A DNA stretch of 64,000 nucleotides from Candidatus Lernaella stagnicola (GTDB lineage: Bacteria > Lernaellota > Lernaellaia > Lernaellales > Lernaellaceae), in contig JAVCCK010000034.1 of NCBI GenBank assembly GCA_030765525.1, forward strand, positions 86,126-150,125, given 5' to 3'. Below are positions 1 to 59,878 of this stretch, piece after piece (position 1 is the first letter of the stretch; every line of letters starts with the position of its first letter). The translations under genes and the position numbers were made by a program. The notes beneath the pieces were generated by a model, which was given only the letters and a program-made list of their open reading frames with translations, did no database searches and was not told the DNA's origin.

Positions 1-986
1 GTTCGCTTCGCGGATATCGGCCACGGTGATGTCTTTGTTGAGTCGCGCGAGGGTGGAATCGTCACCGCTCTCGGCCCCGACGGTCATCTCGCGGAAACCA
101 TTCTCGAAAAGGAAATCCAAGAACTCCTCTTGCCAATGGCGGGCGATGTAATCGGCCCGGCACTCGCCGCGAATCGTGACGCGCAACCCTTTGGCGCGTA
201 GGCCGTCGGCAATACCTTCGACGCGCGCGCGGTCGACATAGAAATTGTCGTCCTTGATCAAAATACCCTGAATTCCGAATTGCTTGGTGATCGTCTCGAT
301 ATGCTCTACGACGGCGTCGGCAGGTTGCGCGTGCCAGCGGCGGCCGCCGTAGGGCAGGTTGTAACAATAGGCGCACGCGTTGGGGCAGCCGCGGCTGGTC
401 GTGATCGCCAAGTCCCGCAGGCCGAGGGTTTGGGTCGTGACGTAATCATCCACGTTGACCGCGTCGTAGTCGGGAATCAAAACCTCAGACAAATCGGTGA
501 TGCGCGGGGCGTCGGGCGTGCTTTTCACTTCCTCACCGTCGACCCACGTTAAACCCGGAACGTGCGTCCAATCGCCGCCGTCGACCAGCGCCGTGGCCAA
601 CGCCGCAACGGTCTGTTCGCCGTCACCGCGCACTACGAGGTCGACCAAAGGATGCCGGGCGCTTTGCTCGGGCACGAGCGACACGTGAATGCCGCCCCAC
701 ACAATCGGCGTGTCCGGGGTTGTCCGGCGCACGATTTGCGCGGCCCGCAAGCCCCAGTCAATTTGCGCCCCGGTCATTGCGCTGATACCCACGAAAAGCG
801 CTTCGGGAGCCGCTTCGCGCAGGTTGCGCTTCCATTGCGGATCGATGCGTTGGTCGATGATCACGGGGTCGAATCCGGCGCGGCGTAAGGGGCGCACGAG
901 GTACAACACGGCCAGCGGCAACAGCGATGTGACGTTTTTGATGTCCCAACCGGTGCGGGTATAAACCAAGACGATGCGGCGCTTCA
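1..986 (-). CDS. B12-binding domain radical SAM protein (start codon at 986; C-terminal part runs off window edge)
   Basis: Reverse-complement translation from ATG (rc of cat at 984-986) gives MKRRIVLVYTRTGWDIKNVTSLLPLAVLYLVRPLRRAGFDPVIIDQ... (B12-binding fold) followed by TSRGCPNACAYCYN, a CxxxCxxC radical SAM motif. Open to position 1. Not in ORF track because incomplete. Confidence 0.8.
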
Positions 987-1053
987 TGGCGGCATGGTAG
1001 GTCGCGCGTCGTTCGCGTGCAAGACGGTGATAAACGCGTTACGATATCGACCG

Positions 1054-2442
1054 ATGTCCGCCGATCCACCCATCGTAAAAAGACCGTCCCGCGCGCTCAC
1101 CGTATTGGGCGCGGTGGTCGCCGCTTTGCTGGGCGCCCTGCTTTTTGTAGTCGGCGCGAACGAATACTTGTTTCCTTCCTGGGGACGGTATGTCGCGTTG
1201 GGGGCGGGCGTGGCGATTGGACTGACCCTCCGCCTGGTGCGCCGCGGGGCGGGGCACGAGTTCGCGTGGGCTCTACTGACTCTTTTCCTTTATAACGCTC
1301 ATCTCTCGCTTGGCGGCTACACCTATCTCGGTTGGGTCGCGCCGGTGTTGTTTATCCTGTTGGCGGCGATTCCTTATCCGTTGTTTCGTCGCCGGACGTG
1401 TCTCTGGCGTATTCTCGCCGGCCTGAACGCGGCGTTCTTTGTCGGGCTTGTGCTCTTGATGGTTTATCGTGATTTCAGCTTTGTCGACGAACGAGCACAG
1501 TGTCGAGCCGAGGCGGACAAGGCCCCGTCGTTTGTGCGGGAATTGGGCGGACCGACGCACCCTTACGACTTCGCGGGGAATCCGAAAGACGCAGTGGCCG
1601 GTGTCGCGTACGGTTATGAAAACGAGTTTTACCTGATCGATCGCGACCAACCCACGTTGCGTCGCGGCGGAACCCTGGATGCGCGAATTCAGCGTCTCAC
1701 GCCGCACCCGCAGCAACGCGAATTCTTTGTTCCCTTGTGGGCGCAATGGGGCACGGACGAGCGGATGTTCGTCATGGATATGGATGCCGGAACCAAGGTG
1801 CGGGAAATCGCCGTACCGGGTTGCCGGAATCTTTTCGACGTCGAGTTTTACGGGGGACGGCTGTACGCGTTGTGCGAGGTCAGTCATTCGCTGCACGAGT
1901 TCGACGAAGCGCCGCCGCATCAAGCACGCCGCTCGCTCGTGTTGCCGGGGATGGACAGCTACGACATGGCTATCGACGCTACCCGGGGCGTGGCATTTGT
2001 CAGCGACTGGTTTTCTCCCTGGTTGACGGTCGTGGATCTGGCGTCGATGACCGTCCGCGAAAAAAAGTGGATCGGCTTTTCCTCGTTCGAAGTAAAGCTT
2101 GGCCCCGACGACAACCTGTATGTGGCGCAGATGTTTCTCAGGCGGGTTCTGGTCTTGAACGCGAAAACGTTGGCACGCATCGACACAATTGACGCCGGGT
2201 ATGGGCCGCGGGATTTAGAGTTCGATCTCGACCGCGGTTTGTTGCTCATCGGTAATTACTTCGACGGGACGATCGACTACGTGCGTTTGGCCGACCGGAA
2301 GCGCATCGGACGGGTGTTTGTCGGCCGGCCCCTGCGCGGCTTGTGGTACGACGCCGACTACGACCGGCTCTACGCCGCCTGCGGGTGTGGTGTCAAATTC
2401 GCGAAAACCGGTGACGTATTCGAGGGGCAGGTGCAGCGATAG
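1054..2442 (+). CDS. membrane-anchored protein with beta-propeller-like (YVTN/YncE-type) repeats; hypothetical
   Basis: ORF 994..2442. The likely start is the internal Met (MSADPPIVKRP). The N-terminal ~150 aa are hydrophobic (4 predicted TM helices). The C-terminal 300 aa have repeated hydrophobic-strand/turn motifs (YLIDRD, LYALCEV, GVAFVSDWFSPWLTVVDL, NLYVAQ). Confidence 0.5.
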   Translation: MSADPPIVKRPSRALTVLGAVVAALLGALLFVVGANEYLFPSWGRYVALGAGVAIGLTLRLVRRGAGHEFAWALLTLFLYNAHLSLGGYTYLGWVAPVLFILLAAIPYPLFRRRTCLWRILAGLNAAFFVGLVLLMVYRDFSFVDERAQCRAEADKAPSFVRELGGPTHPYDFAGNPKDAVAGVAYGYENEFYLIDRDQPTLRRGGTLDARIQRLTPHPQQREFFVPLWAQWGTDERMFVMDMDAGTKVREIAVPGCRNLFDVEFYGGRLYALCEVSHSLHEFDEAPPHQARRSLVLPGMDSYDMAIDATRGVAFVSDWFSPWLTVVDLASMTVREKKWIGFSSFEVKLGPDDNLYVAQMFLRRVLVLNAKTLARIDTIDAGYGPRDLEFDLDRGLLLIGNYFDGTIDYVRLADRKRIGRVFVGRPLRGLWYDADYDRLYAACGCGVKFAKTGDVFEGQVQR

Positions 2443-2531
2443 GCAATCATGGGAAAACCTCCGCGCCGTCGAACACGCTGGGTTGATGTTTTCCCTCGTC
2501 GCCGACGCAAAAAAGAGACCAAAACGCCCGT

Positions 2532-3851
2532 TTGATGGGTGTTCGGTCGCCTCGCGGGCGCGAAATCGACTTGACGCGGCGCGTGCGTCGTGTTTCTCTT
2601 AACGTTCCTGAAAACAGGTGGTTTGCATTTGACGACATGTCTTGTTGGATGTCCGTGGTGAGCGAAAAATTGCAACAGAATATCAAAACCTGGCGCGCCG
2701 ATTTGGAGCGCTTTCCGGACAAGCGATTGTACCATCGCCTTGCCGAAGCGCTCCTGTCGCTGGGTGAAGCCGAGGAAGCCCTGCAAGTGGCCGAGGCCGG
2801 GATGGCGCGCCACAAGCGATATTGGTCTTGTCAGGAGGCCATGGGCGCGGTGTTGGTCGCCCTGGGACGTTACGACGAGGCCGTGACGGCGCTGGAAGGT
2901 GTCGCCGAGCACGGGGGTATCGGCGAAGGGAAACGCAACCTGGCCAAAGCGTATTACAGCGCCGGTCGCGATCAGGATGGCGCCCGTGTCTGCAAGGAAC
3001 TGCTCCGCGCCGATCCCTTCGACAAAACCGCCAAGCAGTTGCTCGTAAAAGGCAAAGCCGTGCCGGCTTCGCCGCGCTTTGAGACGCCGCCGGCCGTTGA
3101 GACGCCGGTCCAAGAGCAGCCGGTTGTCCCGATCGAACCCGAACCGATAGCCGAGCCCGAACCTATCGCGGCCGAAGCGCTGATCGAGCCCGAGCCGATT
3201 AGCGAACCTGAACCTATCGCGGCTGAAGCCCCGGCAGCACCGCCGACCGAATCGACAGCGTCGCCGGTCGAACAGCCCGCGGAGAGGTCTGCGGTCGTCG
3301 AAACTCCTTTCGAGGACCTGAGCACCAGCGAGACCGACAGAGTCGTGGACGATTTCTTCGACCCGTTGATGGAAGAGCCCGCTCCGGATCAAGAGGACGA
3401 CGCGCCCGCGCAGCCTGAGGTCGACGAGCCGGAGCCGCCGCCGGAGGAAGATATTGCCGACGAGGACGGCGCGGAGGATTCGGTTGGCGTGCTCTCCGAC
3501 CCCGTCGAGCCTGAGCCGGTGGGCCAGAGGGAAGGCTTCGCGGTCGCGGACGACGCGGATCCCGATGCCGACGATGTCGAACCGGCGCACGAGTACGACC
3601 CGACCGAAGGCATGGATGAAAACGTCGATATCGAAGACGTCGATGTTTTCGGAAGTCTGGACGAGAACAGCGCACCCGAGGCGAGTCCGGATGAAAACGA
3701 GGCGGCGGACGAGGGGGAGGAACTCGAAGACCACGACGACGAACACGAAGATGAAGACGACGCGTCTATCAACGAAGAGCAAGGCGATCATTCAACCAAG
3801 AAGAAAAAACGTCGGCGGCGATGGAAACCGTGGCGGAAGAACAAGGAGTAA
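2532..3851 (+). CDS. TPR-repeat protein with acidic Pro/Glu-rich repeat region and polybasic C-terminal tail; hypothetical
   Basis: N-terminal TPR-like helices (RLYHRLAEALLSLGEAEEALQVAEAG..., YDEAVTALEG..., AKAYYSAGRDQDG...). Middle has tandem EPEPIAEPEPIAAEA repeats, then a D/E-rich segment. Ends KKKKRRRRWKPWRKNKE. An alternative ATG start lies at 2637. Its stop overlaps the aroQ RBS. Confidence 0.6.
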   Translation: MMGVRSPRGREIDLTRRVRRVSLNVPENRWFAFDDMSCWMSVVSEKLQQNIKTWRADLERFPDKRLYHRLAEALLSLGEAEEALQVAEAGMARHKRYWSCQEAMGAVLVALGRYDEAVTALEGVAEHGGIGEGKRNLAKAYYSAGRDQDGARVCKELLRADPFDKTAKQLLVKGKAVPASPRFETPPAVETPVQEQPVVPIEPEPIAEPEPIAAEALIEPEPISEPEPIAAEAPAAPPTESTASPVEQPAERSAVVETPFEDLSTSETDRVVDDFFDPLMEEPAPDQEDDAPAQPEVDEPEPPPEEDIADEDGAEDSVGVLSDPVEPEPVGQREGFAVADDADPDADDVEPAHEYDPTEGMDENVDIEDVDVFGSLDENSAPEASPDENEAADEGEELEDHDDEHEDEDDASINEEQGDHSTKKKKRRRRWKPWRKNKE

Positions 3852-5539: not shown

Positions 5540-8500
5540 TTGGCCAAGGACAAAAAAGGTAAAAAGGACGGCTTGCTTAGTAAGCTTAAGGGATCCAAGC
5601 AAAAGAAATACGATCCCGAACTCGCCGAGCTGCAACGTGAGGTGCAGGATGACCCCGCGAATATGCGCGCCCGCCGTAAGTTGGCGGACTACTACCTCAA
5701 GCGGGGCGATAAGCTCAAGGCGCTGGATCAATACCTGACCGTCGCGGAAACCTACGCCGAAAAAGGCTTTTATCCCAAATCCGTAGCCGTGTACAAGCAG
5801 GCGCTGCAGTTGCAGCCGGATATGATCGAAATCTACCTCAAGCTCGCCGGCCTCTACCGCAAACTCGGCCTGATTCCCGAAGTGGTCGAGCAGTACCATA
5901 AGGCCGCTGCGATTTACGAAAACCAGGGCAAAAATCGTGAAGCGTTAGACATGCGCCGCATGATGCTCGACCTGGATCCGTCCAATATCATGGGTCGCCT
6001 GAAGCTTGGACAGAAGTACCTCGAAGGAGGGTTCAAAACCGAAGCGTCCGCCTCGTTTCTGCGCGTCGCCGAGTTGTTTGAACAACAAGGGAAAACCGCA
6101 GAAAAACAGAAGCTGCTCGAGGGCGTCCTCGATCGCGGTCTCGAGGTTTTCGAAATCCTCTATAAGCTGGTTGAACTTTACCGGGAGCAAGGCCACCCGG
6201 AATTGGCGCTGGCGCGATTGGCCAAACTCAGCGGCGAACTCGCCGGCAGTAGCAGCACGTTGGAGTTGACGGCCGAAATCGCCGCGGAACTCGGCAAGCC
6301 CGCCGTCGCCATCAAGGCGCTGGAACGCGCGAGCGAGCTTTACCGCAAAATCGACCGCATGGACAAAGTGCGCGAGGTGTGTGAGCGCATCTTGGAACTC
6401 GACGTCGACAACGAATACGCCGTTACCCGGCTTTCGGAGATTCCGTCTCCACCTGTGTCGGAAGATATCGAACTCGAGCCTCTGCCGGAAATGGAGGAAG
6501 AAGAAGAGTTCGAAACGATCACGCCGCCGGCTGCCAAGGTCGAAAAGGCTGTCGAAGAGATCACCATCGAGGATGACGAACTGCCGTTGGAAGAGGTGAG
6601 CCCAGAAGAAGAGCCCGTCATCGAGGAAGTCCAGATCGAGGATGATCTGGTGATCGAGGAAGTGGCGCTCGACGAAGAACAACCCGTAGTGGAAGTCGAA
6701 CCGGTCGAGGTGGAAGAGCCCGAGCCTGCCGAAATCGAGGAGATTGCACTCGAGGAAGAGCCGGTCGTCGAAGAAGTTGCGGTGGAAGAAGAGGTCGCGA
6801 TCGAAGAAGTTGCGATGGAAGAGGCCGAACTCGAGGAAGAGCCCGTCGTCGTAGAAGTCGCGATGGAAGAGGAGCCCGTCGTCGAAGAAGTTGCGGCCGA
6901 AGAAGAGGTCGCCGCCGAGGCCGAGGAACCGGTCGAAGAAGAGGCCGAAGAGGAAGGCCCGGACCAGATCGATCTGGGCGAGATGAGCGAAGAGGAAGCA
7001 GCCGAGCGCCTCGACGAGGCGATCGATATTTACTTGAAGTACAACCTGCGCGACAAGGCCGTTGAGTACCTCAACCTGGCGCTGGAGCGGAATCCATCAT
7101 CCCTGCTGGTGCTTGAAAAACTCATGACCGTGCACCGCGACTCCGGCGAGGACGCGAAAGCCGAACAGATTCTCGGCGAACTCATCGAAATCGCGCAGAA
7201 ACAGCAGCGGGTCGAGAAACTCGAGCAATACCTCACGCAGATGCTCGAAGCTTCTCCCGACGATCTGGACACCGCGCTGCGCTTGGCCGAACACTACGAG
7301 GAAACCGAGCCGGAACGCGCCATCGTTCATTTCTTCGACCTCGCCAACCGTCATCGCGACCTCGAAAACGCCGACGAAGCCGAACTCATGCTGGATCGTA
7401 TCTTGGCGATCGATCCCGAACACGAAGGCGCGCACCGCGAACTGCTCGATATTTTCGAACAAAGCGGCCAGATCGACAAAGCCGTCGAGAAGCTGTTCGC
7501 GTTGGCCGAAGCCGCTCGTGATTCCGGCGACACCGAAAGCGCCGAGAATTTCCTCATGCGGGTGTTGGACCATCACTCCAACGAAGATCGCGCACAAGAG
7601 GAATTGTTGGCGCTCTACGACCACGCCGGGGCCACCGACAAGTACGCCGATTTGCTGCGCCGTGTGGCCGATCAAAACGCTCAGGCGGGGCATTACGACC
7701 GCGCACTCGAGCAGTACGGGCAATGGCTCGATTTGGATGAGGACAACCTCGAAGCGCGGGAACGCATCAAAGACCTGTATCTCGAAAAGGGCGACACCGA
7801 CGAAGCCATCGGCATTCTCATCGATATCGCCGAGCGCGCGGCGGACGAGCATCCCACAAAAGCCGCCGAAGCCTTGCGCGAGATTCTCTCTTTGGATTCC
7901 GATCACGTGGCGGCCCGCGAGTCCCTGCGCGACGCGCTGCTGGCGGCCGGGGATGTCGCCGGAGCCGTCAACGAAATGATGACTCTGGCCAAAGCCGCTC
8001 TGGAGAACAGTGAGGCCGAGGAAGCGTTGGGGCATTTGGACGGCGTGCTCGGCGTCGATCCGCGCAACGACCAAGCGCTACGCCGCAAGATTTCCATCCT
8101 GCGCGATCTGGGTCGCGAGGACGAAGCGACCGAACTGCTCTTTGAGATCGCGGCCTTTGCCGAGCGTTCCGGCGACATCGACAAGGCCGAGGCGACGCTT
8201 CGCGAGGTGCTGGCGACCGACGAACACGCCATACGCGCCCGCATCTCGTTGAAGGATCTGTTCCTCAACGCGGGCCTGGAAGACAAAGCCGTAGCCGAGT
8301 TGATCGACTTGGCGCAAACCGCCGAGCAGACCGGAGACAACGATACCGCGCTGGTGTACTGGGGCGAAATCTCCGGCCTCGACCCCGACAATCTCGACGC
8401 GCGCAAGGGGATCGCCCGGTTGCATTTGGCCGGCGGCGACACCGACAGCGCCGTGTCCGAATTGCTTTCTGTGGCCGGCCTTCAAGAGACCGGGGGCGAC

Positions 8501-11500
8501 CTCGACGGCGCGATCGAAACCTTGCGGCAGGCGTTGGAATACGACGAACAGAACGAAGTCGCCGCTTCCCGCTTGATCGAATTGCTGCTGCAGACCGGCC
8601 AAACGGAGCCGGCCGTCGAATTGCTCATGACCGAAGCGGCGCACGCGCGTAGTGCGGGGCGGTTGCCGAAAGCTCGTGATTCATACGAACGGGTCATCGA
8701 GCATGACGGCCGGAACGTCGAGGCGCGCCGGCAACTCAAAGAGGTGTATCTCGGAACCGGGCGGCAGGATCGGGCGATCGAACAGTTGTTCGCCATGGCC
8801 GATCTTTTCAAGGCGCTCGATGAACCGGACAATGTCGAAGCCGCGCTGCGTGAAGTCATCGAACTCGACGGAGAAAATACGGAAGCCGCCACCGCGCTCA
8901 AGGACCACTACTTCGCCAGCGGTCAGCAAGCCGCAGGCTTGGATATGCTCCACGATTTCGTCCAGAAGGCTCGGGCACAACGGGAGATCGAAGAGGCGAA
9001 GACATTCGCCGAGGAAATGTTGGCCGTCCAGAGCGACGACCGCCGCGCCCTGATTGCGCTGGCCGAAATCGCCGTAGAGGAAAACGACACGTTCGCCGCC
9101 GTCGGTCGCTTCCGCACCCTGGCGGGTTTGGCGCTTGCCGAGAACGCCAACGAAGAAGCCGAGCGTCATTTCGCGCGTATCATTGAGTTGGACGACGCCG
9201 ACGCCGAGGCCCGCGCCGAACTAAAAACGCTGCTGCTGGCGCGTGGTGATCGGCTCGGCGCCACCGAGCAATTGTTCGCGCTTGCCGACCTGGCCGGCGA
9301 AGGCGGAGATTCCGACGAAGCGCTTCGCTATTACCGCGAAGTCCTCGAACTCGATTCCCGAAACGAAACGGCGTTAGAGAATTTGGTCGACATCATGGTT
9401 GCCGCCGGCGATGGCGATCAGGCGATCGAAGAGATGTTCCTGCTGGCCGAAATCGCGCGGGAGAAAACCGATTTCACGCGCGCCGAACGTTTCCTGCGGC
9501 AAGTGCTGGATGTCGACGGCGACAATACCCAAGCGCTGGAAATTCTCAGCGATGTGCATATCGCGGGCGGCGAGACGGGCCAGGCGGTCGAGGAACTCTT
9601 CCGCTTGGTAGAGGCGGCCGAGAACGCCGAGGATTATGAACACGCTTTGGGATTGGTCGATCGCGTGCTTGATCTGGATGAGGAAAACATCAACGCGTTG
9701 GGCAAAAAGGCCGACTTACTCGATCTTTTGGAGCGCCACGACGAGGCCGTCGCTTCTCTGCTGCAACTCGCCGGTGCCCAACGGGCGCGCGAACTTGACG
9801 ACCACGCCGAGCGCGCGCTGCGTAAGGCGCAAAAACTCGCGCCGGAAGACCAAGGTGTTCACGACGCCCTGATCGATTTGTTGAGCGGTGCCGAAGATAC
9901 GCAGCCGGTGATCGACGAACTGCTTCGCTTCAACGGCGCGGCGATTGAAGACGGCGACCACGACAAAGCCACCACGGTGGCCCGGCGTATTCTGGACCTC
10001 AATCCGCGCTTCGAACGCGCACACCGCATGCTCATTGACGCGCTCAAGGCGCAGGACGAACTCGAAGCCGCCACCGAAGCGCTCTTCGCGCTCAGCGATC
10101 TGCAGGCCGAAGCCGGCGAGCAGGCGGCGGCGGAGGAGACGATCGAAGAAGTCTTGTCGCTGGAGGCAACCAACCAAGCCGCCATCGACAAACTTACGAT
10201 GTTGATGCTCGACACCGGCCGCCACAGCGAGGCCGTCAAGCTGCTGTTGGCCTTTGGCGATCGGTTGCAGAGGGTTGAGCAATTCGCCGAAGCGCGCACC
10301 GCGTTCGAGCGCGTGCTCGACATCGAAGACGGCGACGCCGAGGCGCTGGGTAAACTCAAGGAATCTTATCTGGTCACGTCCGATATGGCCGAAGCGGTGG
10401 AGATTCTCTTCCGCACGGTCAGCGCCGCGGATTCGCGTCACGAAGAGGACTTGGCGTTCGACTCGTTGCGCGAAATCCTTGAACTGGACGAGCGCAACAT
10501 CGAGGCGTTCGAAGACCTGAAGGCGCGTTTGTTCAAGGCCGACCGGGTCGACGATGCCGTCGATCTCATGCTGATGGCCGACGAAAAAATGCCGCCGGTT
10601 TGGGACGAGGATCGCCGCATCGACAACCTGGAAGAAATTCTTGAGACCGACGAACAGAATAACGAAGCGTTGGAACGGCTCGCCGATATTTTCAAGAGAA
10701 CCGATCAAGCCGATCGCGCGATGGACATTCTTTTCCGGTTGGCCGAACTCGCCGAACAAGACGGCGACAGCGAAGGGGCCGCGGGGCGACTGGGCGACAT
10801 CATCGCCATCGACGGACGCAATCTGCGGGCTCACTTGCGCGTGGCGAATCTCTACGAACAGGCGGGTGATGAGGACGCGCTCGCTGCGCGCCTGTTGACG
10901 ATCGCCCACCTGCAGCAGGACGCGGGTGACTTGGACGAAGCCGCCGCGACTCTTCGCCGCGTGCAGGCAATCGAGAAGTTCGAGGAAAAAGCGCTGCGGG
11001 AACTGGATGATCTCTTCGGCGCGGCGGGCGACGAACAGCAGCGGCTGGAAGTCCGTTTCGAACTTGCCGCCGTGTACGGCCGCCGGGACGATGTCACCGA
11101 GGCCGAGGCGATCTACCTCGGGATTCTCAAGCAGGATACCGACAACCTGCTCGCGCGTGATTCGGTTATCAATCTGTACGCGGAGCACGAGCGCGGTGCC
11201 GATGCCGCGGCGCAGGCGATCGTTCTGGCCGACCGGGCGCGTAAAGCCGAGGACTTTGACGAAGCCATTTCGCGTTACGAGCAGGTGCTGTTCTTCGACG
11301 TGGATAACACTAAAGCAAGGCGTCATTTGAAATCCTTGCTGGTTAAGACCGAGCAGTTCGGGGCTGCGTGCATGCAGCTTCGCGTCTTGGCCGACGCGGC
11401 ACGCGATGGCGACGATTTGATCGCCGTGGAAGACGCTTTGACCGAGCTTTTGCAACTCCAACCGGACGATTTGGACGTACGCCGCGAGTTGGTGGATCTC

Positions 11501-18212: not shown

Positions 18213-18326
18213 TCCTGGCAGACCCCCTGCCGTTTGCCGGCGCATCGCCCCCCGGGGGCGCACGCAGGTTTGGACGGGACTTGTATCACAACGCGGCAAC
18301 TCCGGTCAATCGACGCGGCTTGTACG

Positions 18327-19013: not shown

Positions 19014-19367
19014 GTGCCGGGTAGCGTATGGTGGGTGGAGGACGCGATGCAGTGGTTATTGGATAACTGGCAATTGTGCGTTTTCTATTGTCAGGAAGGG
19101 GCGTATTTCAGCGCCCTGCTGTCTCCCATTGGTATTGCCTTGTCGCTCCTGGTCGTGGTCCTGGGAGCCGTTCTCGGGAATATGCGAAAAACCCTGTGGA
19201 TGACCGTGTTCGCCGTGTGGTTTCTCGTGCCGCTTCACCATTTCACCGTCGAGGGCCAGACGCCCGGCGTCGGCAACGTGGGCGGCTACGGCGCGATGGG
19301 CGGGTTTGGTCTCGGCGTGCTGGTTGTTATCGCCGTTGGTTTCTACGTGTACCTCGTACGCGATTGA
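19014..19367 (+). CDS. small integral membrane protein, hypothetical
   Basis: 117 aa with 3 hydrophobic helices and a Gly-rich C-terminus (GVGNVGGYGAMGGFGLGVLVVIAVGFYVYL). Confidence 0.45.
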   Translation: MPGSVWWVEDAMQWLLDNWQLCVFYCQEGAYFSALLSPIGIALSLLVVVLGAVLGNMRKTLWMTVFAVWFLVPLHHFTVEGQTPGVGNVGGYGAMGGFGLGVLVVIAVGFYVYLVRD

Positions 19368-47263: not shown

Positions 47264-48595
47264 TTATAGGGGGCCGGGCGTCAACTTTTCGGCGAGCTGT
47301 AAACCCATGGCAATTGAATGGTCCATGTTGTTGTACCAGAAGGTGCCCGTGCGGCCGGCGAGACTCAAATTGGCGACCCGCGCCATGCGATCTCGCAGAG
47401 CGGCAAGTTTTTCGTCATAACCGATATCATAAATAGGATAGGACTCGCGCACCTTTTCGATGTGTACTGCCACCACGTCCTGCCGGCCGGTGATCAAATC
47501 CACACGGATCAAGTCGTCGAGAACCTGATCTTGGAACGCTTCGGGATGATCCCAAGCCTCCGGCGGTGAGGATACTTCGACGCAGAGCCCGCTGCGGCCG
47601 CCGGCGATAATATCCGGGTCGAAGGCTTCGGGCCGACTTACTCGGGAAAAAACGAGATCCTGCGAGCCGAAGTAGCACCACTGAAATTCAGGCCCATGGT
47701 GCTTCGTGGTCACGACGTTGAAGCACACGAGGTTGAGGAAATGCAGGTCGGGTTTCGTTTCGCCGGCCATGTCGAGCAGCGCGGTGGGCGAAGCCGTCCA
47801 CACGACGTGCTTGGGCTGCCACGTCCGTCCTCCGGCGCGTACTTCGGTGATCCGCTCGTCGTTCAAAACGACGCCGTCCGCCGGGGTGCCCAACAAAACA
47901 TCGCCGCCCGCCGCCACGATACGGTCACGCAGCTTCTTCGCGAAAACATCGATTCCGCCGCGCGGATAGCGGAACTGAATCTCTGCACCCTTGGGCCGGA
48001 CGAACAAACTCTTGATCAATTCGAACAAGGTGTTGATCTTCAGCCGCTCGTCGATGATGGCCCGGTCGATGCCCGTTCTCGCCCAATCGGCGTGAGTTTC
48101 GCTCGGCGTGATGCCGAGGAATTTCGTCGAGTAGTCGCGGAAAAACGCACGGTACAAAGTGCGTCCGTACATGTTCAGGATGTAGTCTTCGAAGCTGCTC
48201 GGGCGGCGTTTGCGGTACAGGCGAAACAGCAGGTCGAGAACGACGCCAACGATCAAGCGCGGCGGCAACCGCAGCAAGTGCAGCGTCGGGTGAATCGGCC
48301 AGCGGTAGTAGTGCCGGAAGAAATACACGAGGCTGGTCCGCGGTATGTGCAAGACATCGTCGCCGAGGACTTCGTCGAGGAAGCGCAGCACCGTCTCGTC
48401 GGTCGTGTGAAAGCGGTGGGGGCCGATATCGAAATTGCCTTCCGGATAATGGAAGGTGCGCGCCAGGCCGCCCAGTTGGTCTTCGCGTTCGATCACCGTC
48501 ACGCGCGACCCGGCGGCGGCAAGCCGGTCGGCAACCGTCAAACCGCAAACCCCGGCGCCGACAATCAGAAAATCGGGTTGATGGTGTTCCGGCAA
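47264..48595 (-). CDS. FAD/NAD(P)-binding oxidoreductase (amine oxidase / UDP-galactopyranose mutase-like fold)
   Basis: DFLIVGAGVCGLTVADRLAAAGSRVTVIEREDQLGGLA is a Rossmann GxGxxG dinucleotide-binding motif followed by the GG motif. Confidence 0.7.
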   Translation of the reverse strand: MPEHHQPDFLIVGAGVCGLTVADRLAAAGSRVTVIEREDQLGGLARTFHYPEGNFDIGPHRFHTTDETVLRFLDEVLGDDVLHIPRTSLVYFFRHYYRWPIHPTLHLLRLPPRLIVGVVLDLLFRLYRKRRPSSFEDYILNMYGRTLYRAFFRDYSTKFLGITPSETHADWARTGIDRAIIDERLKINTLFELIKSLFVRPKGAEIQFRYPRGGIDVFAKKLRDRIVAAGGDVLLGTPADGVVLNDERITEVRAGGRTWQPKHVVWTASPTALLDMAGETKPDLHFLNLVCFNVVTTKHHGPEFQWCYFGSQDLVFSRVSRPEAFDPDIIAGGRSGLCVEVSSPPEAWDHPEAFQDQVLDDLIRVDLITGRQDVVAVHIEKVRESYPIYDIGYDEKLAALRDRMARVANLSLAGRTGTFWYNNMDHSIAMGLQLAEKLTPGPL

Positions 48596-48696: not shown

Positions 48697-49911
48697 ATGA
48701 AGCTCGAGGATTCGTTGCCCAAAATGCGCGCTGTCGAAATCGTGCCGCTGCACGAGGGACGGGAGGAAAGTTTCCTGCTGCGGGACCCGCTGCAATTGTC
48801 CGACGAGGCGCTCACGGTATCCCACTCGGTGCTTTTCTGTTTGCAGTTCTTCGACGGCACCTTGCAGGTCGCAGCACTGGCCGCCGCATGGAAGGAAGCC
48901 GCCGACGGCAACGAATTGCCTTTGGGACAAGTCAAGAAGATCGTCAACGAACTCGATCGCGTATTCCTACTGGACAACGAACGCAGTTACGAAAAGCTTC
49001 TGAAAATCAAAACCGAATTCCTACGCGAACCCCTCCGTGCGTATCGCTTCTCGGACGGCGGCTTCCTGGATGACTGTTACCGCGCGGCGTTGTTACCGTC
49101 GCCCAGCCAAATCCCCAACGAGAGAAACGATCTGGGTGTGCTCGTGGCTCCGCACATCGATTACGAGCGCGGCGCGTCGGCCTGGGGCTTGGCGTACAGC
49201 ACGGCGAAACAACGCTTTGGCGGTGACGTGGTGATCGTGCTGGGCGTGAACCACCAACCGCATGCGACCGCGGCGACACTCACGCGCAAAGATTTCGACA
49301 CGCCGTTCGGCACTGTAAAAGCCGATGGCGAGCTGGTCGATGAAATCGCCGCCGCCCTTCCTTTCGACGCCTTTGAAGATGAATTCTGCCACCGTGACGA
49401 ACACAGCATCGAACTGGCCGCCACCGCCCTCAAGCACGCGTACGGCGACGCCTGCCCGCGGATCGTACCCATTCTTTGCGGCAGCTTCGAAGAGTTCGTC
49501 GTGCGGCAAACGTCGCCCGTCGAAACGGAAGCCGTGGTGGCGGTGCAGGAGGCTTTGCTTGCCGTGGTCGAACGTCTCGGCGAGCGCGTGTTGCTGCTGG
49601 CCAGTGTGGATCTGGCCCACATCGGGCCGCAATTCGGTTGGGCGAAGCCGATCGAAGAAACGCAGATGCGCGAGTCGCTCGACCGCGACCGGGAGTTGCT
49701 GAACAAGGTGAACGAAGGCGATGCGGAAGCGTTTTTCGAAATGCTGGTGGCCGAGGGCAACCGCCGCAACGTGTGCGGCACCGCCCCCTTGTATCACGCC
49801 TTGAGCGTGCGGCCCGGGTCCGGCTCGATGGGAGACGCCAGCCTGCATTACTGGCGCGCCGACGATGACACCGGCGCCGTGAGCTTCGGCGTAGCCGGAC
49901 GCTTGCGTTAG
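48697..49911 (+). CDS. MEMO1-family protein (AmmeMemoRadiSam system protein B-like)
   Basis: LVAPHIDYERGASAWGLAYS, VVIVLGVNH, CHRDEHSIE and LLASVDLAHIGPQFG are conserved His/Asp-containing MEMO1 (DUF52) motifs. Confidence 0.75.
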   Translation: MKLEDSLPKMRAVEIVPLHEGREESFLLRDPLQLSDEALTVSHSVLFCLQFFDGTLQVAALAAAWKEAADGNELPLGQVKKIVNELDRVFLLDNERSYEKLLKIKTEFLREPLRAYRFSDGGFLDDCYRAALLPSPSQIPNERNDLGVLVAPHIDYERGASAWGLAYSTAKQRFGGDVVIVLGVNHQPHATAATLTRKDFDTPFGTVKADGELVDEIAAALPFDAFEDEFCHRDEHSIELAATALKHAYGDACPRIVPILCGSFEEFVVRQTSPVETEAVVAVQEALLAVVERLGERVLLLASVDLAHIGPQFGWAKPIEETQMRESLDRDRELLNKVNEGDAEAFFEMLVAEGNRRNVCGTAPLYHALSVRPGSGSMGDASLHYWRADDDTGAVSFGVAGRLR

Positions 49912-54417: not shown

Positions 54418-54527
54418 ATTCGTTGGTCTCCGAAACACGCGGCCACACGTTACGGAAAAAACGACAGGGGTGCAAACCGGGCAAGATTCTACTATTAAGT
54501 AATTAACCATTCTTGCAGGAGGCCGGC

Positions 54528-55229
54528 ATGCTCACTGTGGCGATTGTGGTCGCCGGTGGCCGGGGGCGTCGCATGCGCACCGACCAGGCGAAGCAATACA
54601 TCGAGCTGGAAGGCAAATCGATTCTCCAACGCTCTCTCGAAGCGGTGGCGGCCGCCGATCTCGTCGACCAGATCATTCTCGTGGTGCCCCGGGGAGACGT
54701 CGTGTTCTGCCGCGACACATTGGTCGACCGGGGAAATCTGGACAAGATGGTGCGCGTCGCCATGGGCGGCAAGAACCGGCAGGAATCGGTTGCCAAAGGC
54801 TTGGCGGCCATCGAAAAGCTCGGCCTGCTGCCCGATGTCGTCGTCGTGCACGACGGTGTGCGCCCCTTCGTCGATCCCAAGCTCATCGATAAATCGGTGC
54901 GCATCGCCGCTAACTTTGGCGGCGCCTTGGTGGCCGTGCCGGTCACAGACACAATCAAGGTCATTACCGACGACGGTTTTATTCGGCAGACTCCGGACCG
55001 GCGGTGGCTCTTCAGCGCCCAGACGCCGCAGGCATTCCAGTACCACACGCTGGTCGACGCGCACCGCAAGGCCGAGGCCGACGGTTTCGTGGGCACCGAT
55101 GATTGCCAGCTTGTCGAGCGCGTGGGCGGGCAGATTGTCATCGTGGAAGGCGATGAACGAAACATCAAGATCACGACGCCGCACGATCTTCTCGTGGCGC
55201 GGGCTTTGCTGAAAGGAGTTCGGCGATGA
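54528..55229 (+). CDS. ispD: 2-C-methyl-D-erythritol 4-phosphate cytidylyltransferase
   Basis: [16 protein letters not shown]...[12 protein letters not shown]...[20 protein letters not shown] upstream. The stop overlaps the ispF start. Confidence 0.85.
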
Positions 55230-55708
55230 CCTACCGCATCGGGCACGGTTACGATGTGCACCGCCTTGTTGCGGGGCGTCTTCTCATCCTCGGCGGCGTG
55301 ACGATCGACTTCGAAAAAGGATTGCTCGGTCACAGCGACGCCGACGTGCTGACCCACGCGGTAGCCGACGCGGTTCTCGGTGCCGCGGCGCTGGGCGACA
55401 TCGGCCGCCATTTTCCCGACACCGACCCAGAATACGCCGGGGCCGACAGCCTTGAACTGCTTGCGCGCTGCGTGCGTTTCGCCCGTGAACGGGGCTTCGT
55501 CGTCGCAAATGTCGACGCCACGGTGATCGCAGAGAAACCGAAGATCGCGCCCTTCGTCGAGAAGATGCGGGAGAACCTGGCACGCGTGTTGGGAGTCGGC
55601 GAGATGTGCGTCAACGTCAAGGCGACAACCGAAGAGGGGCTGGGCATAACCGGGCAGGGCGAAGCGATGGTCGCGCACGCGGTCGTCCTGTTGAAGCTGA
55701 TCGATTAG
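55226..55708 (+). CDS. ispF: 2-C-methyl-D-erythritol 2,4-cyclodiphosphate synthase
   Basis: [46 protein letters not shown]...[18 protein letters not shown] is a canonical IspF sequence. Confidence 0.9.
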
Positions 55709-57246
55709 GGAGTCGGCTCGGCCCGCCGCTCCATGACCAAAAGGCGCTCGTCGAGATAATCAAGATCGAACAGCGGCTCGGCTCGTTCGGCGATGGCGTG
55801 AAGGTTGGCGGCAAACCCCGTCGCCACCAAGTGAGTGTACTGCCCCACCATGTCCGGATCATCCAGATGCCATATGCGGCTTACGTCCGGCAGTCGTGAC
55901 GGATTGCGCACGGTCACGATGCCCGTACCGAACAGCGCCCGCAGATAGCCGCCGCCGGTGATCACCCGGTGATACGGCAGGTAGCGCAACGGATTGACCG
56001 AGTTCGGGTACGAATAGGGGTCGGCCGCCTTCTCCAAATACGACCGGTTCTCTCGAAAATGAAAATGCGAGTCGGCGAGTATCAACATCTTCGCCCGCGG
56101 TGGAACCAACTGTTCCAGCACGCGGCGCTCTTGCTGAAGAACGCCGCCCGCCTGAAACCACCATACCGCGTTCCACGCCAGCAGCGCCGCCACCGCAAGC
56201 CCCGCCAGGCGAAAACGGCGCGTCGAGAGAGTCGCGGGGCTGGATGTCGATGCGAACAACAGCAGAACCGCCACGAAGATCAGCCGCTGTCCCGGCCGCA
56301 GCAGTTCGTAAATACGGGTGGGCGTCAGCAGGCCGATGATAATCAGGGCGACGGCGAGCACGATCACTGGATTGCGGCGGTCGAAGCGGCCCCGCACGGC
56401 AGACACCACGATGAACGCGCCGACGGCCAGGATTGCTGCGGCGTTGATCGCCGTGTTGATCCAAGCCGCCCAGGTCGGCGTCAACGGGTAGTAACTCGAC
56501 GCAATCGCCCACGGGCCGACCTTGTACCACGTGTAGTAAAGGGGATTGTGAAAGGCGTAGTGAAACCAGAACTCGCCCGCTCGTTGCGAAACGTACCACG
56601 CCAAACACGCCAAAGACGGCGCAAAGGCCGTGCCGGTCACCAGCAGCCGACGCCCCCGTTGCTTGCCGAAGCACGCGAAAATCAGCACGGCCAAACCGGC
56701 GACCGCAAAAGTCAGGAAGTGCGACAGGTAAACCAGAAACACGAGTGCCGCGAGAATCAGCCAGCGCCCGACCGACCACTTGTCCTCAACGCGACGCAGG
56801 AAACCGAGCACCAGGAAGAGCAGTGCCAAGCCGATCGTGAAATTGAAGAAACCCATCAAGAAAAAATGGTTGGCCGCGTACACGACCGCCGCCAGTTCAG
56901 CCAGCGGGCGCTCCCGGCCTTCGGCGCGTGCGAAATAGGAAAACGCCGTCACGAACAAGATCAAATACAGCGCGTAGGCCAGCGCCGCCGCGGTGAATAC
57001 CGGCGCCAGCTTCGTCAAACCGGCGATCACCAGGGTCCCGAGCAGGTTCGGGATGGGCTGCAGGTTGACCACAAAATTGTCCGCCCACGGCTGACTTCCG
57101 GCGTCGGCGATGATCTGCGCCTGCAGCACCCAGTCCATTTGATCCTGCAGGGGCGCCACGCGCACGAGTAACGGCCACGTTGCCAAAAACAACGTCAGCG
57201 CCGCCAACGTGATGTAACGCTCGCGTTTCCGGTGTGCCTCGTTCAT
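55705..57246 (-). CDS. polytopic membrane protein, hypothetical (possible glycosyl/arabinosyl-transferase-like)
   Basis: ~10 predicted TM helices followed by a ~150-aa soluble C-terminal domain. Start assigned to [11 protein letters not shown]. Confidence 0.55.
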
Positions 57247-57356
57247 GGGCCCCTGCTTAGCGCGTTTGCCGCCAAAAGAAAAGACGAGCCGCAAAAACTT
57301 GCGCTATCGCGGGGGCTTGCGGTAGGATGACGGCAACTATCCGCGGGGGAGGTCGT

Positions 57357-58046
57357 ATGCGGCGTACATTGCGCCTTGTCGGAATCGCGTTGATCGTGTT
57401 GTGTTGGGTCGGCGCGGCGCAGGCCGCCGAGAAGAAAATCGGCCTGGGCCTCAAGCTCGGCTACCACAACTTTGTGCGCTACAACCCCACCGACGACCCC
57501 GATGGCGACGGCGTGCTCGAAGATGGTGAGATCGACCAATCGATCGACGCCGGTGCGTTCGACGGCTTTGCTGTCGAAGGTGATTTTGAGTATCGCTTCC
57601 ACCCGAATTTCGTACTCGGCGGCGGAGTCCAGTGGTACGGGGCCAATGTGATCGTCGACGGCGTCACCGACGAAAACCGCGTCAAGGGCGACATCGCACT
57701 TTCGATCACGGCCCTGACGATTACGCCCAAGATCGTTCTGCCGATCAAATTCGTGAACCTGTATACCGGCGGCGGCTTGGGGCTGTACTGGCGGGTGTTG
57801 GGCTCCAGCTATGAATACACCGACCGCTTCGGCAACGACACCTCCGAATCCAACGCCGACAGCCAGGGCACGCTCGGCTACCACGCGATGGTCGGCGCCG
57901 AATTCTTCGTACTCAATTGGATCGGTATCGTCCTGGAAGATCGCTTCGCTTTCGTGCACTTCAAGGGGCAGGACCCCAAAACCGACCTGGACGACAACGA
58001 CGCCGGCGGCAATTCGGTCTTTCTCGGTACGCGCTTCCATTTCTAA
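57357..58046 (+). CDS. outer-membrane beta-barrel protein (OmpW/OmpA-like barrel domain)
   Basis: Signal peptide MRRTLRLVGIALIVLCWVGAAQA. Alternating amphipathic beta-strands. C-terminal aromatic residue (…GTRFHF). Confidence 0.6.
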   Translation: MRRTLRLVGIALIVLCWVGAAQAAEKKIGLGLKLGYHNFVRYNPTDDPDGDGVLEDGEIDQSIDAGAFDGFAVEGDFEYRFHPNFVLGGGVQWYGANVIVDGVTDENRVKGDIALSITALTITPKIVLPIKFVNLYTGGGLGLYWRVLGSSYEYTDRFGNDTSESNADSQGTLGYHAMVGAEFFVLNWIGIVLEDRFAFVHFKGQDPKTDLDDNDAGGNSVFLGTRFHF

Positions 58047-58120
58047 GGCTCCGGCTTGTCCGCCGCGCGGCGGGTCGTTACCGTAGCAACCTCATCGTAT
58101 CTATACCGGAGGAAAGCCAC

Positions 58121-59878
58121 GTGCGAGTTGTGTTTCACTGGGTCGACGAACGATCCGGCCGTTCCCTGCGGCATCCGTTGACGTTCGCGTACATGGCGGC
58201 GTTTCTCGAGTACCTCGACTTCGATGCGCAGTGTTCCTACGAGCCGGACGTGGAAGGGCTGTTGGCCGTCAACCCCGATGTCGTCTGCATATTGTGCAAT
58301 TCGTTTCACTACGCCCGCGCCGTCGAGGCTGCGCGCGAGATCAAGCAACGTCGCCGCGCCAAGTTCGTGCTTTGCGGCCCGCACATATCCAACCGGCCCG
58401 AAAGCCTCGATCCGATTTTCGACGTCGGATTGGTCGGCGAACCGGAAGATTCCCTCCACCATGTGCTCAACGTGTTGAAATCAACCGGCGATCTGTCCCC
58501 CGAGGACCTGCGCGACGTGCCCGGTGTCGTTTTTCTCGAACACCGCACGCCGGTCGTCACCGATCCGCGCGAACTGATCGACCTGGAAATGGCGATGCCG
58601 GTGCCCCGCCGCGACATTCTGCCGCGCTCGCCGTTCCCCGCCGTCGTGGGCGGACGGGGGTCGCCTTTCGAGGACGGCATTCTGGGCGGCTACGTGAACT
58701 GGGGGCGCTACCGAGCCTTCACGAACGGTGTCATCGCGCACGAAATCGAGGAACTGGCTGCGGAAAAAAACGCCGCCATATTACTCGACGACCCTTGGCT
58801 CACCGCCGACGCGTTGCGGCTGGTCGATCTGGCCGACCTACTCGAAGACAAAGAGGTCCTTGGAACCGTCCAGTTTGAAGCGCACGCCCGCGCCGCCTGG
58901 GTTACCGATGAAGTGGGCGAGTTTTGGGTGCGCCTCAACGTCACGCGGGTCGTGCTGGATATGATCGGCGATCTTCGCGATCCTGACGATTTGTACGGTG
59001 CGCGCGTCGATCTGGAAACGCTCGAGAACGCCATCGAAGTGTGCGAGCGTTATGAAGCGGCGGTTCACCTGTTTGCCCATGTCGGCGCGCCCGGCGACGA
59101 CATCGAACGGATTCGCGACTTGTTTGCTTTTCTCACCGAGAAGATTGCCGGCGGCATCCTCGCCTCGGCCCGCGTGGGTTGGCTGCCGCCGCTGCCGGGA
59201 ACGCGCTTTTGGGACGCCGGTGTCGAATCGGGCGTGGTGCGCGAGCCCCAAACCGACTGGGTGGCGTTCGCCCGACTCGCCGACGAACCCAGCCTGGAAC
59301 CGAAACTCGCGCCGCACGTGCCGCGCATCAACCTATGGCGCAAGCACCTGCAGCGTCTCGAAAAAGCGTTCCGGCGTCCCTTGGCATTGTTCGTTCGAGA
59401 CGACGCGGACATGGATATTGAAGTCGACCCTATGGCGTTGCGCTCCATTGTTTTTGTCGTCGAAGAAGAGGGAGTCAGCGAGGTGCTCAGCGACGACGAA
59501 GTCAAAATGGTCCGCTTCTCGCTGGCGGCCTTGCGTCGCGACCTGGAAAAAAACGCTGCCGACGACGATACGGCGCTGGTGCTCTTCGCGCCCCGCCCCG
59601 AGGAAGTCACGATGGAGGACATCCGCGCTCTGCGCCTCGCGGCTTCGCTCGATGGCGTGAGCATCAGCCGGCCGTCTTCAAAACCCTTTCCGTTGCTACT
59701 GTCGGTGCGGGCCGCGCTCGAGTTCGATGTTGATACCTGGCGGGCCTGGCTGGCCGGTGATGAAGCCTCCGTGCCGCCCGCGGCGACGCCCGTGGAGTTC
59801 GCGCCTTATCTCCAGTTGCCCGCGGCCGATCTCGACCAACCCGTTCCGGTTTCGGAGAAGCCTCGCGAGGAGGAATGA
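58121..59878 (+). CDS. B12-binding/radical-SAM-like protein lacking the CxxxCxxC cluster motif (degenerate class B rSAM homolog)
   Basis: GTG start with GGAGGA RBS. The B12-binding-like fold is VRVVFHWVDERSG...DVVCILCNSFHYARAVEAAREIKQRRRAKFVLCGPH. The region homologous to the rSAM cluster loop reads AVVGGRGSPFEDGILGGYVNWGRYR (compare ..SRGCxxxCxxC..R.R in the neighbouring modules), i.e. no Cys triad. The stop overlaps the next gene's ATG. Confidence 0.55.
   Translation: MRVVFHWVDERSGRSLRHPLTFAYMAAFLEYLDFDAQCSYEPDVEGLLAVNPDVVCILCNSFHYARAVEAAREIKQRRRAKFVLCGPHISNRPESLDPIFDVGLVGEPEDSLHHVLNVLKSTGDLSPEDLRDVPGVVFLEHRTPVVTDPRELIDLEMAMPVPRRDILPRSPFPAVVGGRGSPFEDGILGGYVNWGRYRAFTNGVIAHEIEELAAEKNAAILLDDPWLTADALRLVDLADLLEDKEVLGTVQFEAHARAAWVTDEVGEFWVRLNVTRVVLDMIGDLRDPDDLYGARVDLETLENAIEVCERYEAAVHLFAHVGAPGDDIERIRDLFAFLTEKIAGGILASARVGWLPPLPGTRFWDAGVESGVVREPQTDWVAFARLADEPSLEPKLAPHVPRINLWRKHLQRLEKAFRRPLALFVRDDADMDIEVDPMALRSIVFVVEEEGVSEVLSDDEVKMVRFSLAALRRDLEKNAADDDTALVLFAPRPEEVTMEDIRALRLAASLDGVSISRPSSKPFPLLLSVRAALEFDVDTWRAWLAGDEASVPPAATPVEFAPYLQLPAADLDQPVPVSEKPREEE

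Follow-up and report, generated by a model that had tools for sequence, protein, structure and literature searches.

A probable compact radical SAM system for tailoring a surface glycoconjugate in Candidatus Lernaella stagnicola

A 64,000-nucleotide stretch of the metagenome-assembled genome (MAG) of Candidatus Lernaella stagnicola, analyzed as a whole and called the window here, was found to be crowded with genes for class-B-type (B12-binding) radical S-adenosylmethionine (SAM) proteins. On balance we favor the reading that the window holds a compact form of a widespread radical SAM system that tailors a cell-surface glycoconjugate, together with unrelated radical SAM genes nearby. The core of the system is a pair of genes conserved in Lernaellota, which encode a giant four-module radical SAM protein and p2, a protein resembling HpnJ and AprD4. 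Judged from sequence relationships, the system probably uses radical chemistry to modify a sugar carried on a lipid or a glycan of the cell surface. A surface glycan is preferred because of operon coupling, conserved synteny, glycan-gene context, and fusions to glycosyltransferases and a carbamoyltransferase; a guess at cell-surface glycans or lipids, made in an earlier note on this DNA, thus gains support from operon structure, conserved context, and domain fusions.

The source MAG, obtained from Ace Lake in Antarctica, is assigned to the phylum Lernaellota (FEN-1099) (PMC9324843); in the same paper, a cobalamin ATP-binding cassette (ABC) transporter is listed for it and radical SAM enzymes are unmentioned. 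In total, four genes in the window carried six class-B-type modules, and there were in addition one radical SAM module of the SPASM kind and the housekeeping enzyme RimO. Four class-B-type genes among about 40 are far above any database-wide average. The crowding described in the earlier note is therefore real, with Pfam and NCBIfam confirming the genes at or near the positions given there; its total of five genes and seven modules was an arithmetic error, since its own items add up to four genes and six class-B-type modules, and RimO and a MEMO-like protein, which had been added to the count, are both unrelated to class B enzymes.

The giant protein and the p2 operon

The genes and modules at the center of the system are the following:

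28381..29415 (+): Wza-like exporter (Poly_export/SLBB), at the head of the operon
29419..31743 (+): Wzc-like chain-length/tyrosine-kinase protein (Wzz/GNVR/AAA_31)
31746..32966 (+): GT2a, a family 2 glycosyltransferase (GT2) with a C-terminal membrane region (Glycos_transf_2, 89 bits)
32917..34419 (+): p2, an HpnJ/AprD4-like radical SAM protein of class-B fold (B12-binding, 41.5 bits; Radical_SAM, 82.3 bits; CPNNCFFC)
34356..35435 (+): GT2b, a family 2 glycosyltransferase (Glycos_transf_2, 97 bits)
35487..35912 (-): small acidic protein, lipoprotein-like, whose C-terminal domain is rich in Cys, directly downstream of the giant gene; no Pfam match
36125..42091 (-): giant radical SAM protein, with three class-B modules followed by one radical SAM/SPASM module (Pfam)
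40664..42091 (-): M1 of the giant, class-B type (CTKGCTLC; B12-binding, 44.6 bits; Radical_SAM, 80.2 bits)
39215..40663 (-): M2 of the giant, class-B type (CRFRCAFC; B12-binding, 19.7 bits; Radical_SAM, 74.9 bits)
37813..39214 (-): M3 of the giant, class-B type (CIANCTYC; B12-binding, 42.7 bits; Radical_SAM, 75.1 bits)
36125..37519 (-): M4 of the giant, a radical SAM core with a SPASM-type Cys-rich C-terminus (CNLDCIGC; SPASM, 46.2 bits; Fer4_12, 22.9 bits)

The giant comprises 1,988 amino acids (aa) when read from the ATG at 42091; the NCBI protein starts at 42070, has 1981 aa, and is 100% identical. Pfam detected four Radical_SAM stretches, B12-binding, and the SPASM domain, and CX3CX2C motifs occur at residues 341, 815, 1302, and 1655 (numbering of the long open reading frame). 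M3 and M4 are connected by an acidic stretch of about 98 residues (37520..37812). Beyond the 100% match, 19 full-length homologs had 46 to 74% identity. Twenty full-length homologs of 1,929 to 2,064 aa had the same architecture of three class-B modules and a SPASM module, and the giant is therefore not an assembly artifact.

Module assignments were made against the Pfam gathering scores for B12-binding (PF02310, 32.1 bits) and SPASM (PF13186, 21.5 bits). The B12-binding score was reached by M1, M3, p2, and p1 (61.9 bits), a partial gene at the window's edge; M2 and the Cys-less p4 (27.5 bits) lay below it, and both are homologous across that region. A PF04055 core together with CX3CX2C was present in p1, p2, M1, M2, and M3, that is, the motif is kept in five of the six class-B-type modules. 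The sixth, p4 (58121..59878, +), is degenerate and, as the earlier note had said, lacks CX3CX2C; it had no PF04055 match either. In M4, a SPASM domain scoring above the threshold lies downstream of a radical SAM core bearing CNLDCIGC.

M3 is the module best conserved across phyla: the terminal module of distant multi-module proteins matched M3 best (377 to 491 bits), with scores of about 170 to 240 bits for M1 and M2. The solved structures closest to M3 were 9CCB, the methyl-coenzyme M reductase (MCR) glutamine C-methyltransferase, and OxsB. Against TIGR03975, which was the best NCBIfam match of M1, the modules M1, M2, and M3 scored 141.8, 89.0, and 139.7 bits, respectively, below the cut-off of 281.85. 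The best NCBIfam match of M4 was W_rSAM_matur (112 bits; cut-off, 380), and a weak match to the tetraether synthase Tes was also seen. By sequence inspection, possible cobalamin-contact motifs were GG and GEGE in M1 and M3 and GG and GQPEG in M2; cobalamin-contacting positions in class-B enzymes are described in PMC9204698. Motifs of the GG/GE type were present in p1 and M1 to M3, and GT or GP stood in their place in p2 and p4. Cobalamin dependence is thus plausible for the M-type modules (those like M1 to M3) and p1, and cobalamin use by p2 and p4 is uncertain. AprD4, the nearest structural relative of p2, is placed among the "unrelated enzymes" on a network of radical SAM enzymes dependent on B12 (PMC12931638), and this label likewise makes cobalamin use by p2 uncertain.

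The genes for Wza, Wzc, GT2a, p2, and GT2b follow one another with gaps of 2 to 3 bases or with overlaps. GT2a overlaps the start of p2, which NCBI places 12 codons later, and the true start of GT2b is likely the ATG at 34416, in an ATGA overlap with the p2 stop. The best NCBIfam matches of GT2a were AglJ, a dolichyl-phosphate hexose transferase, and the ArnC-like type; GT2a is of the polyprenyl-phosphate hexose transferase type. p2 matched the HpnJ model TIGR03471 along its full length (354.3 bits; E, 1e-105), below the cut-off of 577.6. Its AlphaFold2 model (pLDDT, 90.8) had AprD4 with bound paromamine (6fd2) as the best PDB fold match (TM, 0.75/0.82; E, 4e-25), followed by TsrM, the MCR glutamine methylase, CysS, TokK, and OxsB; AprD4 was also the best PDB sequence match (80 bits, 23% identity).

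The p2 family contained 1,831 proteins at E values of ≤1e-40, with members of at least 50% identity in Acidobacteriota, Bacillota, KSB1, Myxococcota, and Novosphingobium. Two p2 homologs that were inspected (53 to 54% identity) stood in a cassette with a GT2 carrying a C-terminal membrane domain, a GT2-pyruvyl transferase fusion, the radical SAM gene, and an LPG_synthase_TM gene; the GT2s of these cassettes (L043 and L044) were 29 to 32% identical to GT2a and, for the GT2 ahead of the p2 homolog, 36 to 38% identical to GT2b. Such a grouping of a p2-type gene with two GT2 genes and a gene for an HpnL-like LPG_synthase_TM protein occurs in unrelated phyla, in a layout like that of hpnI-hpnJ-(hpnK)-hpnL. 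HpnL belongs to the LPG_synthase_TM family.

Conservation and kinship of the modules

In relatives whose giant is 61 to 74% identical (L001, L012, and L013), the giant gene converges on the Wza-Wzc-GT2-p2-GT2 operon as it does in the window. Adjacency of GT2a and p2 is retained in L001 and L013, Wzc and Wza are retained near the giant in L014, and the giant of Ca. Alcyoniella is flanked by PMT_2 membrane glycosyltransferase-like genes.

More distant relatives of the giant (30 to 36% identity) were found in Omnitrophota, Planctomycetia, Calescamantes, Caldisericota, Woesearchaeota, Ca. Saelkia, and other MAGs, where they form arrays of three parts. One part is a full-length p2-type protein with 28 to 37% identity to p2, for which HpnJ was the best family (235 to 240 bits). 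Another is a chain of about 1,430 aa in which an M4-type module is the first of three radical SAM/SPASM modules (for example, L005 5727..10013, L022 5969..10345, and L040 6047..10303), which in Omnitrophota, Planctomycetia, and others always lies between the p2-type gene and the M-type multi-module gene. In the last, a protein of 1,300 to 1,830 aa, a small radical SAM/SPASM module at the N-terminus is followed by two or three modules of M type that end with an M3-like one. Some of these modules are fused in one genome and encoded by separate genes in another. Up to six radical SAM domains were present per chain (P0022), and within 28 kb of one Planctomycetia locus there were no fewer than 14 radical SAM modules.

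The arrays sit between Wzm/Wzt-type ABC transporter genes and runs of GT4 and GT2 genes. Their neighbors included a WecA-like initiating transferase, Wzy_C (O-antigen ligase/polymerase type), carbamoyltransferases, PMT_2 (GT-C type), GDSL proteins, and paired genes resembling dTDP-glucose-4,6-dehydratase and GalE (nucleotide-sugar dehydratase/epimerase); the precomputed Pfam context comprised ABC2_membrane, ABC_tran/Wzt_C, GT4, Glycos_transf_4, Wzy_C, Epimerase, PMT_2, and GDSL. In our seed searches, the same glycan context was seen in about 26 of 30 loci; the GDSL calls rest on the L004 seed together with Pfam. p2-type, M-type, and M4-type modules occurred together beside glycan assembly or export genes in the window (Wza/Wzc/GT2), L001, L013, L004 to L006, L019 to L022, L026 to L028, L032 and L033, L036 and L037, and L040. 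Several proteins joined the two kinds of activity in one chain: GT4 with radical SAM and SPASM (L004 and L041), p2-type with GT2 (L004), Carbam_trans_N with radical SAM and SPASM (L041), and GT2 with class-B modules (P0059). The domains joined to GT4 and to Carbam_trans_N are homologous to M4.

The ATPases of the array ABC transporters are unusually long, at about 750 to 1,170 aa (L005 600..3383, 927 aa; equivalents in L026, L037, and L040). They had no Pfam match beyond ABC_tran and may carry a Wzt_C-like glycan-cap-binding extension.

A second kind of megaprotein was found in Lernaellota, about 2,290 to 2,360 aa long, with one small radical SAM/SPASM module and four class-B modules (P0037; L041 10001..17077; L042 10001..16879). 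P0037, of 2,288 aa with a small radical SAM module and four M-type modules, is encoded on another contig of the same L. stagnicola MAG. In Alcyoniella and a Lernaella relative, a carbamoyltransferase gene directly precedes the P0037 ortholog; in L041 and L042 it overlaps the start of the megaprotein gene, and in L041 the megaprotein shares an operon with the GT4-radical SAM and carbamoyltransferase-radical SAM fusions. A carbamoyltransferase gene is also present in the window:

16392..18299 (-): NodU/CmcH-type carbamoyltransferase (Carbam_trans_N and Carbam_trans_C)

This enzyme is 43% identical to the L040 copy and, although set apart within the window, may belong to the same pathway family.

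The density of radical SAM modules had been ascribed to a local expansion of one subfamily in a lineage-specific pathway. In all-against-all BLASTP searches of the window modules, full-length kinship was found only among M1 to M3 (30 to 34% mutual identity; M2 was 30 to 32% identical to M1 and M3). Pairs involving p1 or p2 had 25 to 30% identity across about 240 to 340 residues, and pairs involving p4 had 21 to 22% or no significant match. The best curated families also differed: BchE-like for p1, HpnJ for p2, RiPP/PhpK-type methyltransferases (RiPP, ribosomally synthesized and posttranslationally modified peptide) for M1 to M3, and weakly HpnR/MJ_1487 for p4. A simple neighbor-joining tree was built of 100 modules, taken from the window, the related loci, the p2 family, and a wide background set; the window modules had no common ancestor below that of the whole tree, and M1 to M3 fell inside a 40-tip clade made up exclusively of M-type modules from many phyla. 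By these sequence comparisons, the window modules belong to four old lineages: p1 (a BchE-like singleton), p2 (HpnJ/AprD4-like), M1 to M3 (M-type), and the Cys-less p4. M1, M2, and M3 each have a positional ortholog in every Lernaellota-type giant, and their triplication is therefore ancient. These results speak against a single local paralog expansion. The N-terminal PP[F/W]…PP signature that had been taken as common to all modules is present in M1 to M3 and confined to the M type, in which it was found in 37 of 90 modules elsewhere, compared with none of 22 p2-type and none of 7 p1-type modules. The idea of a lineage-specific pathway was likewise not borne out, because seven or more phylum-level groups carry the system; as denser arrays exist elsewhere, the density in the window is unexceptional for loci with this system.

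Other genes of the window

The remaining features that bear on the radical SAM content of the window are the following:

1..987 (-): p1, a partial BchE-like class-B radical SAM protein (B12-binding, 61.9 bits; Radical_SAM, 40.7 bits; CX3CX2C)
20358..21719 (+): RimO, a housekeeping methylthiotransferase (TIGR01125, 421 bits; cut-off, 356.95)
48697..49911 (+): MEMO-like protein (Memo, 108.6 bits; AmmeMemoSam_B, 86 versus 26 bits)
58121..59878 (+): p4, a class-B-type protein that is degenerate and Cys-less and is extended by about 200 aa at its C-terminus (NCBI hypothetical protein P9L99_15390)
59875..61947 (+): membrane protein ending in an SGNH/GDSL hydrolase domain (Lipase_GDSL_2, 72.6 bits)

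p1, RimO, and the MEMO-like protein are taken to be bystanders of the glycan system. The p1 gene had been placed at 1..986; the gene, though partial, was confirmed, and its start is one base off, the ATG lying at 987..985. An Ace Lake contig with 100% identity (L007) supplied the full-length form of 488 aa, which scored 169.8 bits against BchE (TIGR02026; cut-off, 481.35). Orthologs with 68 to 69% identity keep the same neighbors, namely genes for a beta-propeller-like protein, a TPR protein, aroQ, an M24 peptidase, and a 2,673-aa TPR protein; no glycan genes were present in these conserved neighborhoods, and p1 is treated as a singleton outside the glycan system. The 2,673-aa protein (5540..13561, +) consists almost entirely of TPR repeats with long acidic Glu/Val-rich stretches and is found beside the p1 orthologs in L008 and L009; an AAA_22 ATPase gene (13558..14493, +) overlaps it by 4 bases.

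The RimO architecture was confirmed (UPF0004, Radical_SAM, and TRAM_2). Upstream, a gene for an Fe-S protein resembling the 2-hydroxyglutaryl-CoA dehydratase D component and double-cubane-cluster proteins (19306..20361, +) overlaps the rimO start by 4 bases, which suggests cotranslation with RimO. The MEMO-like gene is syntenic in L001 and L013; AMMECR1 and the AmmeMemoRadiSam radical SAM partner are absent within the window, so an AmmeMemoRadiSam system is not indicated there.

Apart from p4 itself, a word-indexed search returned a single homolog, with 33% identity; an exhaustive HMMER search returned 1,589 relatives, of which three were full length (33 to 36% identity). CX3CX2C was present in 148 of the 151 best relatives, among them the full-length P0067, and all three Cys residues are lost in p4, P0066, and P0068. 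Since this loss is common to the three proteins, p4 is a degenerate member of a small clade and not a fresh pseudogene. The p4 stop overlaps the start of the GDSL gene (ATGA), so that the two genes are translationally coupled, and GDSL genes also stand beside multi-radical SAM genes in L004, L023, L040, and L041. A role for p4 as a catalytically dead partner of the coupled GDSL membrane protein would fit this arrangement, weakly. Divergently upstream of the group formed by an outer membrane protein gene, p4, and the GDSL gene lies a gene for a 529-aa polytopic membrane protein (55705..57294, -) with no Pfam or NCBIfam match.

Several further genes were recorded. An amine-oxidase/UDP-galactopyranose-mutase-like flavoprotein of PRK07208 type is encoded at 47264..48595 (-); similar genes between the WecA-like and ABC transporter genes of the arrays in L019, L021, L026, and L039 are only 22 to 24% identical, and it is a tentative candidate for membership in the system. 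Long poly-Asp/Glu linkers immediately after the signal or lipobox Cys were found in four proteins (35487..35912, 22028..24106, 24173..24940, and 62311..63051, all -), one of them a subtilase with a MopE-type metal-binding motif that ends in DDDDDD…GGCGC, and such linkers look like a general habit of exported proteins in this lineage. IspD-like (54513..55229, +) and IspF-like (55226..55708, +) genes of the methylerythritol phosphate pathway were identified from sequence. The G+C content of the window is 56 to 65%, and long spurious open reading frames occur on both strands; many with Arg/Gly-rich translations (for example, 2370..3791, 54503..55678, and 57243..58040, all -) were set aside as likely artifacts of high G+C content.

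Proposed chemistry, alternatives, and meaning

In the proposed scheme, GT2a would make a polyprenyl-phosphate-linked (amino)sugar, which p2 would rearrange or dehydrate by radical chemistry after the manner of HpnJ ring contraction or AprD4 diol dehydration. The M modules of the giant, which resemble class-B methyltransferases, and its SPASM module may then add C-methylation, oxidation, or epimerization, acting as one fused assembly, and GT2b with Wza and Wzc would extend, finish, and export the product.

A glucosamine ring is the substrate of both of the nearest characterized relatives of p2. For HpnJ, the proposed reaction is a contraction of that ring, on the lipid-linked glucosamine of a hopanoid glycoside, which gives a cyclitol (PMC9204698, PMC13459092). 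p2 aligns across the whole HpnJ model, and GT2 genes adjoin both; the p2 operon differs in carrying Wza/Wzc polysaccharide export genes. Squalene-hopene cyclase, HpnH, and HpnK were absent from the window, where HpnA-, HpnB-, and HpnE-like matches were weak and far below cut-off. Given the score of p2 below the HpnJ cut-off, the lack of hopanoid genes in the window, and the Wza/Wzc operon, the acceptor is probably not a hopanoid. AprD4 (6FD2), the apramycin radical SAM 1,2-diol dehydratase, acts on the glucosamine ring of paromamine; it shares only 23% identity with p2 and belongs to an antibiotic pathway rather than a surface-glycan locus. M1 to M3 share with class-B methyltransferases (TIGR03975, PhpK, 9CCB, and TokK/CysS) the two-domain layout, CX3CX2C, and best matches, but at scores of at most half of the family cut-offs, and here three such modules and a SPASM enzyme form one chain in a glycan-assembly context. 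GenK and GenD1 are class-B radical SAM methyltransferases that act on sugars. FbiC, a fusion of CofG and CofH, carries two radical SAM domains for successive steps of one pathway; those domains belong to another subfamily, and there are four in the window giant, up to six in P0022, and at least 14 per locus in the system described here. M4 resembles SPASM/twitch enzymes (PqqE, the tungsten-cofactor maturase family, and BtrN, which oxidizes an aminoglycoside-type substrate) in its core and Cys-rich C-terminus, but it has a long insertion between core and SPASM, lies below every curated cut-off, and shows an unusual Cys order as read from its sequence, CX2CX5C before CX12GX4C.

Several points weigh against the glycan reading. 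The best NCBIfam matches of p1, p2, p4, and M1 to M4 all lie below curated cut-offs, and those of M1 to M3 are peptide, protein, or phosphinate methyltransferases (TIGR03975, ApyD, and PhpK). A 2026 review (PMC12931638) finds methylating and nonmethylating class-B enzymes indistinguishable by sequence, so that the sequences of the M modules do not decide whether they methylate. The giant gene forms a transcription unit separate from and convergent with the p2 operon, and no glycan genes were detected beside the giant in L003/L015, L017, and L030. The related loci were retrieved with the giant as the query, which biases them toward radical SAM richness, and the annotation of their flanks comes partly from our seed searches and otherwise from precomputed Pfam. 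The system itself, a multi-module radical SAM glycan-locus system, is defined in this analysis and is not a curated family.

The main rival is a peptide or protein substrate, with the giant as a RiPP-type maturase acting possibly on the small Cys-rich secreted protein encoded directly downstream. The TIGR03975 and ApyD matches of M1 to M3, the MCR glutamine C-methyltransferase as the nearest solved relative of M3, and the SPASM domain, typical of peptide maturases, all agree with it, as does the position of the acidic Cys-rich protein; a similar protein comes after the giant in L001 and stands close to it in L003. This protein is absent, however, in L012 to L014 and in all distant arrays, and its signal or lipoprotein-like N-terminus is shared with many other proteins of the genome; it was accordingly rejected as a RiPP precursor or general partner, and its membership in the system is doubtful. 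No conserved small precursor gene was found across the loci, the family scores reach at most half of the cut-offs, and the constant neighbors are glycan genes. The fusions join radical SAM modules to glycosyltransferases and a carbamoyltransferase, and none to peptidases, leader-binding domains, or RiPP transporters was seen. We consider a maturase unlikely. Modification of the hydrocarbon of a membrane lipid or polyprenyl carrier, by methylation, cyclization, or C-C coupling as in HpnP/HpnR, ladderane, or tetraether pathways, would agree with the matches of p2 and p1 to the ladderane-type lipid B12/radical SAM family and HpnR, the Tes match of M4, the HpnL-like LPG_synthase_TM genes in the p2 cassettes of other phyla, and the MBOAT and PMT_2 membrane enzymes near some loci. 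Those lipid-family matches are weaker than the matches to HpnJ and AprD4, both glucosamine-ring enzymes; genes for building lipid or isoprenoid chains are not conserved in the loci, and the fused partners are sugar-acting enzymes, so that a target in the hydrocarbon rather than the sugar appears quite unlikely.

It is also conceivable that the density is a coincidence in a radical SAM-rich lineage and that not even p2 and the giant are functionally linked. The four separate old lineages of the modules, the conserved nonglycan neighborhood of p1, the five-domain P0037 in the same MAG with more such proteins in relatives, and the separate transcription of the giant and the p2 operon would all be expected in that case. 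The adjacency of the giant and p2 is nevertheless kept in relatives down to 61% identity, and in six or more other phylum-level groups, p2-, M-, and M4-type modules are neighbors or parts of one fused chain, which makes coincidence very unlikely.

The glycan reading can be extended, more tentatively, to a new and phylogenetically broad class of poly-modular radical SAM megaenzymes. These might form a dedicated tailoring machine for the surface glycans or glycolipids of uncultured anaerobes, combining HpnJ-like, methylase-like class-B, and SPASM domains at four to six per chain and at least 10 per locus, and possibly yielding sugars with C-methyl, deoxy, or carbocyclic changes at carbons that are not activated; the giant of Lernaella would then be the most compact form, with everything fused in one chain. 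The component domains are already known. In open-access papers and preprints, no description was found of a multi-radical SAM glycan system, of four to six radical SAM domains in one chain, or of glycan loci with arrays of this kind; one Omnitrophota preprint notes in passing that radical SAM and sugar-metabolism domains co-occur in giant proteins.

Radical SAM sugar chemistry is known from a few antibiotic and hopanoid pathways and not as a routine step in the assembly of surface polysaccharides or glycolipids. The kinship of the modules corrects the idea of a recent, lineage-specific gene expansion. If the glycan reading is true, a large new set of class-B and SPASM enzymes would have a predictable substrate class, and the compact Lernaella version, with one 6-kb gene and an operon of five genes, would lend itself to heterologous reconstitution. 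Many uncultured anaerobic phyla, including Lernaellota, Omnitrophota, Planctomycetia, and others, would then have envelopes that are chemically unusual and costly in cobalamin.

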